Virus record (IMG/VR): IMGVR_UViG_2663762992_000004
DNA from: a virus
Lineage: Duplodnaviria > Heunggongvirae > Uroviricota > Caudoviricetes
Strand: one strand, 5' to 3'
DNA: 6,501 nucleotides
In this document: piece by piece, positions 1-6,501 of the stretch
How the letters are laid out: every line of letters begins with the position of its first letter
Position numbering within the stretch: position 1 is the stretch's first letter
Program-made: the position numbers and the translations under genes
Notes under the pieces: generated by a model
Databases searched by the model: none
What the model was told of the DNA's origin: nothing
Seen by the model: the letters and a program-made list of their open reading frames with translations, nothing else

Positions 1-96
1 ATTTTCTCCAGATGCTCTGTATGGTCAATCAAGTATTGGATCATATGCATAATTAATCTTTTAATCAGTTAATAGAATAAAAACCTAGGTAAACAC
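1..96 (+). promoter_or_regulatory. AT-rich leader upstream of the DNA polymerase gene; probable promoter/5' UTR region, with no confident -35/-10 assignment
   Basis: Non-coding AT-rich stretch directly upstream of the 687-aa ORF. A weak Shine-Dalgarno-like AGGT lies about 8 nt before the ATG at 97, and a TAGAAT hexamer at 73..78 is a possible -10. Promoter elements were judged by eye only. Confidence 0.25.
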
Positions 97-2160
97 ATGT
101 CCAATATACTATGGGGCGACCTGGAAACCTATTGCGAAATCCCTATTACGAACGGTACCCATGCGTATGCCGAAGGCGTTGAAGTGATGCTTTTCGCATG
201 GGCTATCAACGACGGGCCAGTAAACGTGTGGGATATCACTGCCGGTGGTGGTATTCCACACGGCTTATACGAAGCAATCGCAGACCCTGAAACCCTGCTT
301 TATTTCCATAACTCTCACTTCGACCGCACCGTTCTGCGTTATGCAATGCCGCGACTGGCACCGCCAGTCGAACGTTGGCGCGACACGATGGTGCAGGCGC
401 TGGCGCACGGTCTCCCGGGGTCTCTGGGGGAACTCTGCGAAGTACTAGGCGTCCCGCAAGACAAAGCGAAGGACAAAGAAGGTAAAGCGCTGATCCAGCT
501 GTTCTGTAAGCCACGTCCGAAAAACAGCAAACTGCGTCGGGCCACCAGTAAAACCCATCCGGAAGAATGGCGGCGCTTTGTTGCTTACGCCGGACTGGAT
601 ATCGAAGCAATGCGTGAAGTCTATAAACGTCTGCCGAAGTGGAATTATCAGGGGACAGAGCTGGCGCTCTGGCATCGTGATCAGCAGATCAACGACCGGG
701 GCGTCTGCATGGACATGCAACTCGCGCGCGCTGCGATCGAAGCGGTAGACCAGGAGCAAAAGCGCCTGGCAAAGCGTACACAGGAAATGACTGATGGCGA
801 AGTGCAGGCAGCCACACAACGGGACGCGTTGATTAAGCACATCGTTGAATCCTACGGTGTGGAGCTACCAGACATGCAACGCAGTACCCTGGAACGTCGT
901 ATGGCCGACCCCGATTTATCATCTGCCGTGAAAGAACTGCTGGCTATCCGCCTGCAAGCCAGTACTACCAGCACCAGTAAATACAAGGCACTGATGAAAG
1001 GCGTAAGCCACGACGGGCGCTTACGCGGTACGCTACAGTTCTGCGGGGCGTCACGTACCGGTCGTTGGGCCGGACGGCTATTCCAGCCCCAGAACCTTCC
1101 CCGCCCTTCACTAAAACAGGAACAAATAGACGAAGGCATCGAAGCACTGAAAGCCGGATGTGCAGACCTGCTGTTTGACAATATCATGGAACTAACCAGT
1201 TCAGCGTTACGTGGCTGCATTATCGCGCCAACAGGCAAAAAACTAGTGGTAAGTGACTTGTCAAACATTGAAGGCCGTATGCTGGCATGGCTGGCGGGAG
1301 AAGAATGGAAACTGAATGCATTCAGAGAGTATGACGCTGGAACGGGTCCGGACTTATATAAACTGGCGTATGCAAAAGCTTTCGATATTGCACCAGATGA
1401 TGTTGATAAACACATGCGTCAGATCGGTAAAGTCATGGAACTCGGTCTGGGTTATGGAGGTGGTGTATCGGCTTTCATCACTTTTGCTCTGGTTTACGGT
1501 CTCGATCTCGACGAGCTGGCGAACGCCGCACTGCCAAACATTCCCCGCGATGTTATCCGCGAGGCAAAAAGCTGGTACGACGAATCGGTTAAGCGTAAGT
1601 CGACCTTTGGCCTGTCCGAGCGTGTATTCATCGCATGTGACTCGCTCAAGCGCCTGTGGCGCAGGGCGCACCCGGCGACCTGCGATTTCTGGTACGAGCT
1701 GGAGCGCACTGTCCGCACAGCAATCGCCACACCGCAAAAAACATTGTATTGCGGCTATCTTAAAATCCGACGTGATGGCGCGTGGCTGCGCATACAGCTA
1801 CCATCCGGACGCGCTGTATGCTACCCGTCTCCGGTTATCGAACAAGGGAATATCACCTACATGGGTGTTAACTCTTATTCGCGTAAATGGCAACGACTCA
1901 AAACCTACGGCGGAAAGCTGGTGGAGAACGTCACCCAGGCGGCCGCCCGCGACGTTCTAGCCAGAAACATGCCGCTGATCGAGGGTGCCGGTTACAGCAT
2001 TGTGCTAACGGTACACGACGAGGTGATCACCGAAGCACCAGACACAGAAGATTTCAACGATAAAGCGCTTTCCGCGCTTCTCTCCACTAACCCCGAATGG
2101 GCACCCGATATTCCGCTGAACGCTGGCGGCTTTGAGGCGTACCACTACAAAAAAGATTGA
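97..2160 (+). CDS. Family A (Pol I / T7-like) DNA polymerase with N-terminal 3'-5' proofreading exonuclease domain, phage type
   Basis: 687-aa ORF. Exo I motif D-x-E in the N-terminus ([10 protein letters not shown]). Polymerase motif A ([19 protein letters not shown]), motif B ([16 protein letters not shown]) and motif C ([11 protein letters not shown]) are present in canonical order. Long ORF with uniform codon usage and no competing frame. Confidence 0.92.
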
Positions 2161-2224
2161 TATAACTCACCTTATCGAGCTATGGCGACATGCTGAATTC
2201 GAGTAAATTAAAGGTACAATACTT

Positions 2225-2986
2225 ATGCAGGAACTAACTGAAATGCCGATCAACTATCCATACCCGAGAGAATCTTTTCCTGACTTTTTGAGGGAGTGTG
2301 GGTTCACCAATTTTTCCCACGAACAGCGTGAGACTTATGACTGCTATCGTTTAACGAATGGCGTAATTGTTAACCTTTACACCACCCGGACCATTCAGTT
2401 TCAAGGGAACCCTCAAGAACGTCCCAATGTTGAAACTGCAATAATGTCCCATTTAGGAACGCCCCCCACGGCAACACCACTAGCCGTAGAACAGCCATCT
2501 GAGCTTCCCAAAAAGATATTCATTGTTCACGGCCATGACCATACTGCAAAGGAACAACTTGAGCTAATCCTTCATAAACTTGGATTACCAGACCATTTCA
2601 TTTTGCAGAATACGGGAGGGACTGGACTCACCATTATTGAAGAGCTTGAACGTGAAATTGGGCAAGGACAAACTGCTACTCGTTTCGGGATTGTTCTTTT
2701 GACACCTGATGATATGGGATACTCAAAGCGCGCCGGTGAAGCAGAAATCCAACCCCGCGCAAGACAGAACGTTGTACTCGAGATGGGTATGCTTCTTTCG
2801 TCCTTAGGGCGCAGCAATGTAGCAATCCTTCAGAAACAGCACCTAGAACAGCCTTCTGATGCTAACGGGATTTTGTATCTGAATTTCAACGACCATGTAC
2901 GTGAAACAGTTCCTCGTCTAGTGCAACGGTTACAAAATTCTGGTTTCGAATTTACACAAGCTCAAATAGCTAACGCTTCCTCGTAA
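2225..2986 (+). CDS. Two-domain cargo protein: N-terminal domain of unknown function (~aa 1-78), Pro/Thr-rich linker, C-terminal TIR-like nucleotide-processing domain (~aa 96-235); candidate defence/abortive-infection effector
   Basis: 253-aa ORF with a weak AGGT Shine-Dalgarno-like element ~9 nt upstream. C-terminal domain shows the pattern KKIFIVHGHD ... IVLLTPDD ... PRARQNVVLEMGMLLSSLGRSNVAILQK, which I recognise as characteristic of the bacterial 'TIR-like' flavodoxin-fold family (Pfam PF10137-type) with a conserved Glu in NVVLEMG. GC is visibly lower than the flanking polymerase gene. The domain call is from motif recognition, not a profile search. Confidence 0.7.
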   Translation: MQELTEMPINYPYPRESFPDFLRECGFTNFSHEQRETYDCYRLTNGVIVNLYTTRTIQFQGNPQERPNVETAIMSHLGTPPTATPLAVEQPSELPKKIFIVHGHDHTAKEQLELILHKLGLPDHFILQNTGGTGLTIIEELEREIGQGQTATRFGIVLLTPDDMGYSKRAGEAEIQPRARQNVVLEMGMLLSSLGRSNVAILQKQHLEQPSDANGILYLNFNDHVRETVPRLVQRLQNSGFEFTQAQIANASS

Positions 2987-3010
2987 TTACCCCCTTATTG
3001 TTGATTACAA

Positions 3011-3036
3011 CCCTGCATTGCGGGGTTTTTTATTTG
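3011..3036 (+). terminator. Rho-independent terminator downstream of the TIR-like gene
   Basis: GC-rich hairpin CCCTGCATTGCGGGG (stem CCCTGC / GCGGGG with one G-U pair and a short loop) immediately followed by TTTTTTATTT, located 25 nt after the stop codon at 2986. Confidence 0.6.
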
Positions 3037-3050
3037 GGAATAAAAACCCT

Positions 3051-3185
3051 ATGTCATTTAAATACCGGGACAGTCCGCTTTATTACCGGACTGCACGGGA
3101 GGCTTTGCGCCTTGAACAGTCCAGCGGGTACGACCGGGCGATGCAGGTCTGGGCCAAAGCGAACGTCGGTTTGATTTTTGTCTGA
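3051..3185 (+). CDS. Possible small ORF (44 aa, MSFKYRDSPLYYRTAREALRLEQSSGYDRAMQVWAKANVGLIFV), hypothetical
   Basis: ATG at 3051 to TGA at 3183..3185, my own translation; it is below the size cut-off of the supplied ORF track. Codon usage is GC-rich like the phage backbone, but there is no clear Shine-Dalgarno sequence. It could instead be untranslated leader carrying a promoter for the downstream genes. Confidence 0.2.
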   Translation: MSFKYRDSPLYYRTAREALRLEQSSGYDRAMQVWAKANVGLIFV

Positions 3186-3221
3186 TGCAGAACATGCGCG
3201 AAAAGCGTAAGGAGGTGGACG

Positions 3222-3416
3222 ATGTCTAATATCGATAATAAAGGTTGGGGGTTCCCCGCCCTGTCGAAAAAAGCACATTTCTTTAATTCGGGGGAAGCCA
3301 TATCACTATGCGGAAAATGGATGTTCACAGGTATCAGGATTGACGAATGGCATGACCATCCTGAGAACTGCGCTATCTGCATGAAGAAACGCAAAAAGCA
3401 GGAAGGCGAAAGCTAA
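3222..3416 (+). CDS. Small hypothetical protein (64 aa) with a Cys/His cluster (C30, H44, H46, C50, C53); possible zinc-binding
   Basis: Strong Shine-Dalgarno AAGGAGG 7 nt upstream of the ATG at 3222. Its stop overlaps the start of the next gene (TAATG at 3414..3418), indicating translational coupling with the VRR-NUC gene. Confidence 0.6.
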   Translation: MSNIDNKGWGFPALSKKAHFFNSGEAISLCGKWMFTGIRIDEWHDHPENCAICMKKRKKQEGES

Positions 3417-3700
3417 TGGCCTATGAACGTGAAAACCTAATCGAAAAGCACCTCGTCGCTGAAGTAAAAAAGGCTGGCGGGGTTGCCTTTAAGTTCGTAT
3501 CTCCCGGTCTCCGCTCGGTACCAGATCGCATTGTTCTGCTACCCGGCGGTCGCATCGTCTTTGTCGAATGCAAAGCACCAGGCAAACCACCACGACCTGA
3601 TCAGTTGCGCGAGCATGAACGTCTGCGAAAACTGGGCTTTACCGTGGTAGTACTGGATAGTAAGGAGCTTTCATGTATATTAGGCAAAAAATTACAATAG
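3416..3700 (+). CDS. VRR-NUC domain nuclease (PD-(D/E)xK superfamily), phage-associated
   Basis: 94-aa ORF with the pattern PDRIVLLPGGRIVFVECKAPGKPPRPDQLREHERLRKLGF, typical of VRR-NUC proteins (D ... E-x-K catalytic core followed by a conserved Q/E-rich helix). It is translationally coupled to the upstream small ORF. The last ~15 codons become AT-rich, suggesting the native 3' end was remodelled by the adjacent insertion. Confidence 0.82.
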   Translation: MAYERENLIEKHLVAEVKKAGGVAFKFVSPGLRSVPDRIVLLPGGRIVFVECKAPGKPPRPDQLREHERLRKLGFTVVVLDSKELSCILGKKLQ

Positions 3701-3715
3701 GAGTCTGTGTAAGCT

Positions 3716-4633
3716 ATGGCTAAGCAACAAACGAAAGAAATAAACCAAGATGATGTAAAAGACAACAAAAATATGCCACCTCATATATGCGGCATTATTA
3801 TGCCAATTGCGGACATAGAAGGTTATCCCACTGGACATTGGAGAAATGTTCATGACATTATTTGTGAAGCATCAAATGATGCCGGATTCAAGGCAAATTT
3901 GGTAAGTTCAGATGATGATGTTGCAGTAATACAAAAACGAATTGTTCAAAATCTTTATGAAAACCCCATAGTTGTTTGCGATATAAGTGCTCGAAACGCT
4001 AATGTAATGTTTGAATTAGGAATGCGTCTCGCATTTGACAAACCGACCGTAATTATTAAGGACGAGCGCACTCCTTATAGCTTTGACATTTCATCAATTG
4101 AACATTTAGAGTACCCTTCGGATTTAAGATACCAATCAATCAATTTATTCAAAGAAAGACTTGCGAGCAAGATAAAAGAAACATATTTAAAGTCAGTAAC
4201 TGATCCTGAATACACAACATTCCTCAAACATTTTGGCACTTTCAAAGTTGCACAACTAGACCAGAAAGAAGTATCAGAAACTGAGTATCTGGCATCTGAG
4301 ATTAAAGATATCAAATCATTATTGATATCTCTTAGGGCAACAGCAACGACAAAATCCAGATTTTTCGACTCACCGAAAAATTACTCGCAGCAGGAAATTG
4401 ACAACTCTGTAGATATTATTAAAAATGGAGTTGCCAGTTATACTATAAGGAGTGAAGGATTTAGTATATCAAAATCAGCACTAGAAAAGTTACGCCAAAG
4501 ACTACACAACGCAGGATTTCAAGTCGAGCAAATAGTATTGACAGGAAAAGAAGTAATTATTCATCTGTCATCACCTTTAATAAATGAAGAAGAAAATATT
4601 TTTAAAGATGCAATAGTAACAGCACTATTATAA
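3716..4633 (+). CDS. AT-rich cargo protein: N-terminal nucleoside 2-deoxyribosyltransferase-like / TIR-like flavodoxin-fold domain (~aa 24-116) plus C-terminal region of unknown function (~aa 120-305); candidate defence or counter-defence effector
   Basis: 305-aa ORF with AGGAG Shine-Dalgarno ~8 nt upstream. N-terminal pattern ICGIIMPIADIEGYP ... NPIVVCDISARNANVMFELGMRLAFDKPTVIIKD matches the D...N-x-V-x-F-E-x-G...K-P signature of nucleoside 2-deoxyribosyltransferase-like domains, with Glu100 as the putative catalytic nucleophile. GC is markedly lower than the neighbouring genes, and Lys/Asn/Ile-rich codon usage points to foreign origin. Domain call is by motif only. Confidence 0.7.
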   Translation: MAKQQTKEINQDDVKDNKNMPPHICGIIMPIADIEGYPTGHWRNVHDIICEASNDAGFKANLVSSDDDVAVIQKRIVQNLYENPIVVCDISARNANVMFELGMRLAFDKPTVIIKDERTPYSFDISSIEHLEYPSDLRYQSINLFKERLASKIKETYLKSVTDPEYTTFLKHFGTFKVAQLDQKEVSETEYLASEIKDIKSLLISLRATATTKSRFFDSPKNYSQQEIDNSVDIIKNGVASYTIRSEGFSISKSALEKLRQRLHNAGFQVEQIVLTGKEVIIHLSSPLINEEENIFKDAIVTALL

Positions 4634-4645
4634 ATAACATTTTTA

Positions 4646-4680
4646 AAACAACAAAAGGTCTAAATTGGCCTTTTGTTGTT
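4646..4680 (+). terminator. Intrinsic terminator-like hairpin downstream of the AT-rich cargo gene
   Basis: Perfect 12-bp inverted repeat AACAACAAAAGG (4646..4657) / CCTTTTGTTGTT (4668..4679) around a 10-nt loop. The 3' arm is itself T-rich and is followed directly by the helicase Shine-Dalgarno TAGGAG. The AT-rich stem means it may act as a weak or bidirectional terminator, or as an insertion scar. Confidence 0.5.
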
Positions 4681-4695
4681 TAGGAGCCATATTAT

Positions 4696-6090
4696 ATGCC
4701 CCCAAAATATATACCTCGCCCCTACCAAGTTCTCATTATCAACCACGAAACCGAAACCCTGCGCGGCAACATCTGGGCGGGGATGGGAATGGGTAAAACC
4801 GTGGCAACGCTCACTGCGCTGGAAGATCTCTTTATGGCAGGGGCAGAAACATGCCCCGCACTGGTCCTCGCGCCGCTGCGCGTGGCTGCCAGCACATGGC
4901 CGGATGAAGCACTGAAGTGGGGACATTTGCGCAATATCGAGGTGCAGCCAATTATTGGTAATGCCAAAGCGCGCTCTATGGCGCTGACGAACAGCAACGC
5001 AAGCGTGTTCACCATCAACTACGATAACCTTGTCTGGCTGATTGAAGAATTGGGAGAACGATGGCCGTTCGGTACTGTCATTCCAGATGAAAGCACCCGG
5101 CTAAAATCCTTCCGGCTGCGCGGTGGTGGTAAGCGCGCGGCGGCGCTGGGCAAAGTGGCGCATAAGTATGTCCGGCGCTGGATAAATCTCACCGGTACGC
5201 CAGCACCGAACGGCCTGGTAGATTTGTGGGGACAATCGTGGTTTGTGGACCAGGGGCAACGTCTCGGGCGCACTTACGGCGCGTTTACCTCACGCTGGTT
5301 CAACTCGATACAGTTTCCGGGGCAGAGCTGGACCAAACTGGAGCCTTTTGCTCACTCACAGGGTGAAATACAGCGAGCGTTAGCCGATGTAACCCTCTCG
5401 CTGGATGCGGCCGACTGGTTCGATATCAAAGACCCCATCCATAACGTAATCCGCGTGGATATGCCACCGAAGGCCCGTCAGCAGTATCGTGAAATGGAAA
5501 AGGAAATGTTCCTCGAGCTGAATGGCGAAGGCATCGAAGCACCGAACGCCGCGGCAAAGACACTGAAGTGTCTGCAAATCGCCAGCGGCGCAGTATACAC
5601 AGATGACACCGGAAGTTGGTCAGAACTGCATGACACCAAACTACAGGCGCTGGACAGCATACTGACCGAAGCAGCTGGCGCACCTGTGCTGGTTGCTTAT
5701 CACTGGAAACACGATCTTGAACGCTTGCTTAAAGCATTCCCTCGCGGTCGTCACCTCGACCAGGATCCACAGACACTGCGCGACTGGAATTCCGGAAAGA
5801 TTCCTGTTCTCTTTGCACACCCAGCCAGCGCGGGCCACGGCCTGAACATGCAGGACGGCGGAAATATACTGGTATTTTTCTCACACTGGTGGGACCTGGA
5901 GCAATATCAGCAAATTATTGAACGTATCGGCCCCACCAGGCAGATACAGGCCGGACACAATCGTCCGGTATTTATTCACCACATTATTGCTGCCGACACT
6001 ATGGATGAAATGGTGATGGAGCGGCGCAACTCAAAACGAACAGTGCAGGACATCCTGCTCGATGCCATGAAAAAGAGAGGTATAGCATGA
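4696..6090 (+). CDS. SNF2-family (DEAD/DEAH-like superfamily 2) helicase/ATPase, phage replication type
   Basis: 464-aa ORF with Walker A AGMGMGKT, motif II DESTRLK (DExx-type) and motif III LTGTP in the N-terminal RecA-like lobe, and a C-terminal helicase lobe (HPASAGHGLNMQDGGNILVFFSHWWDLEQYQQIIERIGPTRQ). TAGGAG Shine-Dalgarno 8 nt upstream. The polymerase / VRR-NUC / SNF2 arrangement is common in phage replication modules. Confidence 0.9.
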   Translation: MPPKYIPRPYQVLIINHETETLRGNIWAGMGMGKTVATLTALEDLFMAGAETCPALVLAPLRVAASTWPDEALKWGHLRNIEVQPIIGNAKARSMALTNSNASVFTINYDNLVWLIEELGERWPFGTVIPDESTRLKSFRLRGGGKRAAALGKVAHKYVRRWINLTGTPAPNGLVDLWGQSWFVDQGQRLGRTYGAFTSRWFNSIQFPGQSWTKLEPFAHSQGEIQRALADVTLSLDAADWFDIKDPIHNVIRVDMPPKARQQYREMEKEMFLELNGEGIEAPNAAAKTLKCLQIASGAVYTDDTGSWSELHDTKLQALDSILTEAAGAPVLVAYHWKHDLERLLKAFPRGRHLDQDPQTLRDWNSGKIPVLFAHPASAGHGLNMQDGGNILVFFSHWWDLEQYQQIIERIGPTRQIQAGHNRPVFIHHIIAADTMDEMVMERRNSKRTVQDILLDAMKKRGIA

Positions 6091-6287
6091 GCGAGAAACC
6101 CGACGATTTACTCACCCCGGATGAAGTATGCCAAAAGTTAGGTATTACACAGAAAACGCTATGTGAGTGGAATATTAAGCATCGTCATCGGGCTATCCTG
6201 GCACCAATTCGTTTCAGTGCAAAAGTAGTTCGTTATGAGCGCCGAAATATCGACGCTTTTATTCAAAAATGTCGCAGCCAGTATTAA
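6087..6287 (+). CDS. Small helix-turn-helix DNA-binding protein, AlpA/excisionase-like (HTH_17-type) regulator
   Basis: 66-aa ORF whose ATG overlaps the helicase stop (ATGA at 6087..6090), indicating translational coupling. LTPDEVCQKLGITQKTLCEW is a helix-turn-helix, followed by VRYERRNIDAFI, resembling the conserved C-terminal strand/helix of AlpA/Xis-like proteins. Confidence 0.65.
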   Translation: MSEKPDDLLTPDEVCQKLGITQKTLCEWNIKHRHRAILAPIRFSAKVVRYERRNIDAFIQKCRSQY

Positions 6288-6501
6288 CCTCGCCGCCGTA
6301 GCAATGCCACCTGCGCAAGTATGCTCCGCTCGTGAGCCTCGAAAGCTTCGCGCTTCAACGCAATCTCTTCCTGTAAAATCTCATCAGAAAAGTCGTAATG
6401 TTCTGCCATCGGGTCATCTGACTTGCTGGAGTGGTGNNGGCNNNGGNNGAAACCGGCGAAGAGCCGCAGACCACGCGAGTATTGCGGGTAAAACTGCAAA
6501 C
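6284..6501 (-). CDS. Hypothetical protein, 3' (C-terminal) part only; the gene probably continues beyond the window end
   Basis: Minus-strand ORF open to the window edge; the initial M in the supplied translation is probably an artefact of truncation. It contains ambiguous bases (N at 6437-6438, 6442-6444, 6447-6448). Its stop overlaps the stop of the + strand HTH gene (convergent, tail-to-tail). No recognisable domain in ...MAEHYDFSDEILQEEIALKREAFEAHERSILAQVALLRRRG. Confidence 0.35.
   Translation of the reverse strand, partial: LQFYPQYSRGLRLFAGFXXXXHHSSKSDDPMAEHYDFSDEILQEEIALKREAFEAHERSILAQVALLRRRG

Follow-up and report, generated by a model that had tools for sequence, protein, structure and literature searches.

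Between the family-A DNA polymerase gene and the remaining replication genes of a tailed phage (Caudoviricetes; IMG/VR record IMGVR_UViG_2663762992_000004), the 6,501-nucleotide stretch analysed here, called the window below, carries a plus-strand open reading frame (ORF) of 253 amino acids. It stands on a discrete cassette (Table 1), and its product joins a small N-terminal domain of the TBP-like fold class, through a low-complexity linker, to a C-terminal TIR domain. Both the ORF and its insertion between the polymerase and the rest of the replication module had been pointed out in an earlier reading of the letters alone (the sequence-only reading), and comparison with a prophage lacking the gene, that of Escherichia coli O103:H2, gives the insertion precise boundaries. 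Over positions 1-6436 the window is identical to a prophage of at least 20 complete E. coli genomes, including ESBL/OXA-named and ST38 isolates. This prophage is a temperate phage integrated beside yfhL, and it has also been deposited as the induced phages vB_EcoM-689R2, -611R5 and -606R2. The protein belongs to a catalogued but uncharacterised family of candidate defence proteins, PDC-S35, and what is new lies in its putative sensor domain, in what this domain is and in how modular it is in its behaviour.

The TIR half carries all the motifs by which the sequence-only reading had recognised a TIR-like family (FIVHGHD at residues 99-105, IVLLTPDD at 156-163 and PRARQNVVLEMGMLLSSLG at 177-195). 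PF10137 (CAP12-PCTIR_TIR), the family then expected, was obtained at E=2.9e-31 with 108.4 bits against a gathering cut-off of 24.7, the match spanning residues 97-222 and positions 1-118 of the 119 in the profile. The family alignment on which our conservation figures are based consists of 48 sequences, and every one of them matches PF10137; neither PF08937, the ThsB family, nor PF13676 matches the window protein. The TIR (flavodoxin-like) fold was also returned by a fold search, in which TIR-STING was a strong top match, followed by many TIR domains, with deoxyribosyltransferases ranked below them. Roles have been described for R78, N80 and the catalytic E84 of the TIR-STING protein SfSTING, in which D110 completes the active site of the neighbouring TIR domain in the filament (PMC9402430). 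R180, N182, E186 and D212 of the window protein align with these four residues (PDB 7un8, whose chain numbering is the native one plus 8), and both the helix bearing R180, N182 and E186 and D212 itself are invariant in the 48 sequences. The glutamate of NVVLEMG, previously numbered 184, is actually E186. Judged from the alignment, the TIR half keeps all four NAD+-site residues of TIR-STING, including the aspartate supplied in trans, and we predict a conventional effector that hydrolyses NAD+.

What, then, is the N-terminal domain, which the sequence-only reading had left as one of unknown kind? Three independent lines agree that it is TBP-like, of the RNase HIII-N/RnlA class. Residues 8-78 are modelled as a monopartite beta-alpha-beta4-alpha fold, as in TBP-like domains, at a predicted local distance difference test (pLDDT) of about 92. 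In Pfam, RnlA_toxin (PF15935) is reached below threshold by 12 of the 48 members, with a best E of 8.5e-4 and with 12.9 bits vs 27 for the window protein, and DUF3378 (PF11858), the RNase HIII N-domain, likewise below threshold by three. In a comparison of the N-domain profile with the PDB, RNase HIII (3vn5) and LsoA (5hy3) were top-ranked, with the motif Y-x-TG(S/T)-x-x-x-QGK aligned. The closest relatives in both structure and sequence, the N-domain of RNase H3 and TBP1 of RnlA, are nucleic-acid binders. RNA/DNA hybrids are the only ligand bound by the isolated RNase H3 N-domain, in which Tyr43 and His28 stack on deoxyriboses, Gly52 and Glu27 contact the 2'-OH, and only one weak phosphate contact is made, via Arg32 (PMC4132731); in RnlA, deletion of TBP1 abolishes substrate binding. 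The conserved motif of our N-domain reads G46..N50.Y52.T54(G)T56.Q58.Q60-G61, plus R/K42, and N50, T54, T56, Q58 and Q60 make up a conserved polar face. Position 52, the putative equivalent of Tyr43 of Ta-RNase H3, is aromatic in 47 sequences and histidine in one, G61, the putative equivalent of Gly52, is present in all 48 at the same nine-residue spacing as that from Tyr43 to Gly52, and position 42, putatively equivalent to Arg32, is arginine or lysine in 46. By analogy with its relatives, a nucleic-acid sensor, perhaps of RNA/DNA hybrids, is the leading hypothesis for this domain.

The N-domain changes at about twice the rate of the TIR domain: mean pairwise identity within the TIR family is 37% for the former vs 76% for the latter, and between two E. 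coli alleles of the same slot N-domain identity is 45% and TIR-domain identity 91%. It is also found with other partners on the same chain. An exhaustive search with the N-domain profile collected 857 representative proteins (E<=1e-3), and the domain stands N-terminally on P0207 (617 amino acids) and P0202, which match the PADLOC dCTP-deaminase defence model (E=7e-173 for P0207), on P0219 (428 amino acids) together with eight hydrophobic segments, and on P0264 (297 amino acids) together with an uncharacterised C-terminal domain of about 200 residues. Fusions of TBP-like domains to HEPN (PMC3710099) and to Schlafen nucleases (PMC13056530) have been published, and all these fusions together hint at a general sensor module in bacterial immunity. 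No conserved partner or effector gene accompanies the TIR gene in the ten different genomic settings examined, and the neighbours differ in each. Small ORFs lie upstream in some contexts; they are mutually unrelated and without a domain, and a two-gene system with such an ORF, which occurs in the Vibrio and P0097 contexts, was rejected, as the ORFs are unrelated, domainless and absent from the window. A conserved effector, a fast-evolving modular N-domain and the lack of a partner together make up the typical layout of a one-protein abortive-infection system.

Rather than being a core replication gene, the TIR gene is cargo that may or may not be carried, in a hot-spot of a temperate BPP-1/APSE-like phage of Enterobacterales. 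Among 5,426 complete E. coli genomes, 162 carry the same polymerase; the TIR gene is present in 47 of these prophages (this allele in 37, a divergent one in 10) and absent from the other 115 (71%). The polymerase stop of the TIR-less O103:H2 prophage lies only 5 nucleotides (nt) from the ANR ATG, and in exactly this gap the window and BCE049 have about 890 nt, ET729 carrying the divergent allele in the same slot. An O55:H7 prophage has two unrelated genes in the slot downstream of the polymerase, its homology with the window ending at 2161. By its polymerase the phage groups with Yersinia YeP4 (73% amino-acid identity), Bordetella BPP-1 (67%), the Hamiltonella APSE phages (64%), BcepC6B and Xfas53; YeP4, BPP-1, APSE-1 and Acinetobacter phage 4316 run from the polymerase to VRR-NUC without a TIR gene. 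The presence/absence polymorphism that the sequence-only reading had suggested looking for in this interval is thus real; with the corrections and limits given here, each of its testable points was borne out, and none of the outcomes that it had named as refuting it was seen. In Serratia and Providencia prophages of the same family the TIR gene occupies the same slot, and in Salmonella a different one, upstream of the polymerase. More distant homologues adjoin integrases, a TrwC relaxase, an Mrr-type nuclease or IS21, in bacterial islands and in integrative and conjugative elements (ICEs).

The composition of the cassette also sets it apart from its surroundings, as had been claimed: the GC content of the ORF is 0.451 (0.398 at third codon positions, GC3), vs 0.541 in the polymerase gene (GC3 0.568) and 0.546 in the SNF2 helicase gene (GC3 0.594). 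The downstream terminator proposed before was found 23 nt 3' of the ORF stop, as a hairpin with an 8-bp stem, five pairs of which are G-C, followed by TTTTTATTT. It is the sole terminator-like site within 1900-4800, and it belongs to the cassette because the ET729 allele has its own version with altered stem bases. The last four codons of the polymerase (2149-2160) already diverge from TIR-less prophages. No flanking direct or inverted repeats of note were found around the cassette; transposon-like insertion was rejected on this ground and because the junctions lie at gene ends, as would suit an exchange of cassettes by recombination. Neither an RNA element nor a tRNA was found, and both were rejected as an explanation of the interval. 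Variable presence among syntenic phages, deviating composition and an own terminator are all seen here, as they should be in a phage moron. The moron and the stand-alone gene of the sequence-only reading therefore hold as to these features and to the cassette boundaries; no promoter was detected in a simple scan of 1900-3650, and the gene agrees only in part with the classical definition of a moron.

Table 1. Features of the cassette and of its neighbourhood, in window coordinates.
Feature	Position	Strand	Remarks
Inserted cargo cassette (leader, ORF, terminator)	2161-3045	+	between polymerase stop and ANR start codons
AT-rich leader, 64 nt, GC 0.36	2161-2224	+	AAAGG ribosome-binding site
ORF, 253 amino acids: TBP-like N-domain, linker, PF10137 TIR domain	2225-2986	+	PADLOC PDC-S35, phrog_16442
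N-terminal domain, residues 8-78	2246-2458	+	beta-alpha-beta4-alpha, putative sensor
Low-complexity linker, residues 79-96	2459-2512	+	pLDDT <50; mean pairwise identity 15%
TIR domain, residues 97-222	2513-2890	+	Cap12/Pycsar clade
Putative active-site helix R180-Q-N182-V-V-L-E186	2762-2782	+	by alignment to 7un8 (SfSTING R78, N80, catalytic E84)
P210-S211-D212 motif	2852-2860	+	D212 aligns with SfSTING D110
C-terminal two-helix extension, residues 223-253	2891-2983	+	conserved, 63% pairwise identity
Intrinsic-terminator-like hairpin (3009-3027) and T-run	3009-3037	+	part of cassette
Family-A DNA polymerase	97-2160	+	directly 5' of TIR ORF
Frameshifted ANR-family gene	3051-3229	+	first gene 3' of cassette
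orf64, 64 amino acids	3222-3416	+	
VRR-NUC nuclease	3416-3700	+	
Low-GC ORF, 305 amino acids	3716-4633	+	
SNF2 helicase	4696-6090	+	
AlpA-like helix-turn-helix (HTH) gene	6087-6287		
Integrase, end of gene	3' of AlpA-like HTH gene	-	

The sequence-only reading did not recognise the architecture as that of a described system. The protein is already catalogued as PDC-S35: it matches the PADLOC model PDLC05003 at E=1.2e-108 (residues 10-253 on positions 3-245 of 245) and four further PDC-S35 models at 1e-43 to 6e-56, and its RefSeq name is already 'TIR domain-containing protein'; PHROG 16442, which it also matches, has no annotated function. It is thus a member of PDC-S35 by sequence, a single gene with no obligatory partner, in a family that is itself a bioinformatic candidate. 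The family comprises more than 2,700 clusters at 90% identity, each of about 250 amino acids and of constant architecture, from Enterobacterales, Vibrio, Halomonadaceae, Guyparkeria and an acidobacterial metagenome-assembled genome. PDC systems were proposed by guilt-by-embedding, from genes within BREX, DISARM or type I restriction-modification loci (Payne et al. 2024, 10.1101/2024.01.29.577857). Searches of the literature turned up no account of a TBP-like (RNase HIII-N type) plus TIR architecture.

Several known systems share one half of this protein. SpbK of Bacillus subtilis and TIR-V, -VI and -IX of E. coli are likewise single polypeptides on mobile elements, and the triggers identified for them are phage proteins; in these systems defence requires the TIR active site, and cell death comes faster on infection. 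The C-terminus of TIR-V is superimposable on that of TIR-IX while their N-termini diverge. In the survey of E. coli TIR proteins, 32 clusters were tested, of which these three were active single-protein systems and 20 showed no activity (Wang et al. 2024, PMC11350192); its methods leave unstated whether PF10137 was counted as TIR. In Cap12/TIR-STING (SfSTING; 7un8, 9lmq) the TIR domain is N-terminal, whereas it is C-terminal in the window protein, which has a TBP-like N-domain and no STING domain as CBASS Cap12 has; the NCBIfam Cap12 equivalogs, for which the cut-off is 450, reach 34.8 and 30.5 bits, in the TIR part only, and no CD-NTase gene was found in the window or in 46 kb of prophage and flanks. 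PycTIR (8jsj) is of the same TIR clade and has the same order, an N-terminal sensor and then a C-terminal TIR domain; its sensor, however, binds cyclic nucleotides and a cyclase is required, whereas the window protein has a TBP-like domain and no cyclase nearby, and the PycTIR model PDLC02371 matches the TIR part only (1e-8, residues 132-234). Unlike Thoeris, the locus has neither a PF08937 match nor a ThsA-type effector neighbour. Membership in CBASS, Pycsar or Thoeris was therefore rejected, as the TIR part alone matches and no such sensor domain, cyclase or ThsA partner is present. On the sensor side, the effector attached to the RNase HIII N-domain (4py5, 3vn5) or to TBP1/TBP2 of the anti-phage toxins RnlA/LsoA is RNase H or HEPN, where the window protein has TIR. 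Among the dCTP-deaminase anti-phage proteins (PADLOC 'dCTPase') the P0207/P0202 subset shares the N-domain, at about 1e-12 to the PDC-S35 model and 6e-13 to the N-domain profile; its effector depletes dCTP and not NAD+, and in P0207 nothing corresponds to the initial ~140 positions of the dCTPase model of PADLOC, the TBP-like domain being at its N-terminus instead. The gene of a dCTP-deaminase protein with this N-domain (L021:3956-5809) adjoins a DEAD/MZB helicase gene.

How would such a protein serve a prophage? We infer a defence function, and think it fairly probable that the protein is a one-protein sensor-effector anti-phage system causing abortive infection via loss of NAD+. It would rest as an inactive monomer or dimer until another phage infects the lysogen and the N-domain binds a trigger. 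As this trigger RNase H3 and RnlA suggest, by analogy, a nucleic-acid intermediate, for instance an RNA/DNA hybrid, and the tested single-protein TIR systems of E. coli a phage protein; within this overall scheme we regard the two kinds of trigger as roughly equally likely. Binding would gather the TIR domains, D212 of one completing the active site around E186 of its neighbour, and NAD+ would be hydrolysed, so that growth arrest or death of the infected lysogen would precede replication of the invader and the clonal hosts of the prophage would be protected.

It is to be noted that several observations weigh against this scheme or against a nucleic acid as its trigger. The N-domain is not basic, with a mean net charge of -0.8 and a positively charged sheet in just 12%, and equivalents of Glu27 and His28 of RNase H3 are not conserved in the family; because of these two facts and of the sub-threshold Pfam scores for TBP-like families, nucleic-acid binding stays a hypothesis. 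In the structure model the TIR half is of only moderate confidence (pLDDT 50-86). A simple consensus scan found no sigma-70-like promoter in 1900-3650, although a weak or non-canonical promoter could escape it, and because of this and of the co-orientation of the gene with the replication genes, expression in the lysogen is unproven. The shared slot in Serratia and Providencia leaves room for a long-standing role for the phage itself. Finally, searches of the literature came up with neither a mention nor a test of PDC-S35, nor with an experiment, a domain dissection or a mechanism for the family, though the survey of PMC11350192 may include the protein.

A possible, though less probable, alternative keeps the same effector logic and lets the N-domain sense a protein of the phage (one of the portal, the tail or replication, for example), the TBP-like fold serving as a scaffold for protein interaction. 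All triggers found for single-protein TIR systems of E. coli are phage proteins, TIR-V, -VI and -IX responding to portal and tail-fibre proteins (PMC11350192), and SpbK responds to a phage protein as well; an acidic to neutral N-domain agrees with such a ligand, and the speed at which it diverges is in keeping with an arms race against a protein. Yet the closest relatives of the domain bind nucleic acid, and its conserved face (Y52, R/K42, G61 and the polar N/T/Q residues) resembles the hybrid-binding surface of RNase H3, itself with one phosphate contact only. In an unlikely alternative the protein serves the phage's own DNA metabolism and is no immune NADase; it would be an N-glycosidase of the TIR/nucleoside-2-deoxyribosyltransferase-like type, with nucleotides or primer RNA/DNA hybrids as its substrates during replication. 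Against this, the residues of the TIR-STING NAD+ site are all kept, the trans aspartate included, and TIR matches outrank deoxyribosyltransferase matches. The gene is, moreover, dispensed with by the majority of E. coli prophages with the same polymerase and by all four distant phage relatives examined, and most homologues are in non-phage islands and ICEs.

Could the protein instead act for the phage in lytic growth, as a counter-defence or competition factor that degrades NAD-derived immune signals or manipulates host NAD+ pre-emptively? The possible co-transcription with early or replication genes would suit such a role, which the sequence-only reading had also entertained, but we consider it very improbable; what disfavours it is that the distant homologues are carried by bacterial islands and ICEs and not by phages. 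Among 50,697 phage records the protein is confined to this prophage group and one weak Salmonella fragment, against the more than 2,700 clusters of the family, and the contexts examined are bacterial islands, ICEs and prophages. A viral structure library returned no relative of known function and no informative match, its weak matches all being to giant-virus proteins that are uncharacterised. It was the embedding of its members in host defence loci that led to the cataloguing of the family, and an architecture of a sensor with swappable effectors is typical of defence. Least likely of all is a ThsB-like TIR that makes a signal, a messenger of the cyclic ADP-ribose (cADPR) type, for an effector encoded elsewhere. 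TIR domains can act as signal synthases (10.64898/2025.12.03.692087), but the ten settings share no neighbouring effector, their small upstream ORFs are unrelated, the ThsB family is unmatched, and the PF10137 clade contains terminal NADase effectors.

TIR NADases are a central immune effector from bacteria to plants and animals, and for each family the question is what trigger activates it. In the sensor-effector system favoured here the effector is ordinary, and the sensor lies outside the kinds described so far (STING, SAVED, cyclic-nucleotide (cNMP)-binding, CARF, NLR/TPR and Argonaute-APAZ). It is a small TBP-like module, the only characterised relatives of which are binders of RNA/DNA hybrids or of RNA, and no fewer than three other C-terminal modules are found joined to it. 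Should it indeed sense a nucleic-acid intermediate, this would be a simple case in which nucleic acid is sensed directly and NAD+ depletion follows, and the TBP domains of RnlA and LsoA, which are poorly understood, would become clearer. A bolder and rather doubtful proposal is that bacterial immunity makes wide use of a class of sensors, unrecognised until now and represented by the TBP-like domain, that detect nucleic-acid patterns directly. The domain would respond to RNA/DNA hybrids or to some other intermediate of replication or transcription, and would switch on whichever effector is fused to it: a TIR NADase, a dCTP deaminase, membrane-spanning modules, the HEPN RNase of RnlA/LsoA or Schlafen nucleases. 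In that case a nucleic acid would serve as the template on which PDC-S35, a bacterial TIR, assembles and becomes active, without a second messenger, an Argonaute or an NLR scaffold. As the prophage resides in clinically common E. coli lineages, the gene could affect their susceptibility to therapeutic phages.

The replication module of the BPP-1/APSE-like prophage family has at least two cargo hot-spots, and probably three, which are worth mining. The second variable slot is the interval between VRR-NUC and SNF2, occupied by the 305-residue ORF of the window, by DUF6338, by Arc/Rha genes or by a Dcm methylase. The intervals from polymerase to helicase collect nucleotide- and DNA-modifying cargo. 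The TIR-less prophage of O103:H2 strain 12009 has a DUF4406 gene between ANR and VRR-NUC (L019:7282-7581) and a DNA cytosine methyltransferase in the slot 3' of VRR-NUC (L019:7837-8850). The minus-strand gene between the DUF2815 single-stranded-DNA-binding gene and the polymerase varies as well (its start is at 1-50 of the window; L022:2958-3653, L024:2967-3863), E. coli having a hypothetical gene there, Serratia DUF4145 and Providencia an Mrr-type restriction nuclease (Mrr_cat), and this slot before the polymerase is probably the third hot-spot, one of defence cargo.

The 305-residue ORF in the VRR-NUC/SNF2 slot is a second cargo gene, of very low GC content (0.344, GC3 0.258). More than 4,400 clusters make up its family, which is without a Pfam domain and is annotated as 'hypothetical' throughout, and its N-terminal ~180 residues are seen again in temperate phages that infect Klebsiella, Staphylococcus, Streptococcus, Dorea and Latilactobacillus. 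The invariant motifs N96-V-M-F-E100-L-G and H130-L-E-Y-P-S-D136 mirror NVVLE186MG and HLEQPSD212 of the TIR protein, and the similarity to TIR is weak and at the level of motifs (PADLOC TIR effector 1e-6, PF10137 0.011, hhalign probability 53% in the motif segment only). Going by these motifs, the ORF may encode a TIR-like effector that has so far gone unrecognised and whose C-terminal domain varies.

As for the remaining neighbours, the ANR gene 3' of the cassette is a pseudogene in the lineage of the window, having a 40-nt deletion relative to the intact copies of ET729 and O103:H2. The product of orf64 matches PHROG 2358, whose function is unannotated (E=2.6e-25); its cysteine pairs (C-x-K-W...C-A-I-C) hint at a small zinc-binding protein, and its stop codon overlaps the start codon of VRR-NUC. 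At the other end, the window leaves the integrase sequence of the prophage at about 6448, with seven N's within 6437-6448, and its final 53 nt match the core gene nei (endonuclease VIII), because of which the whole window matches about 5,170 E. coli genomes. Most likely the switch to nei marks a join made in assembling or scaffolding the source contig and is non-biological.

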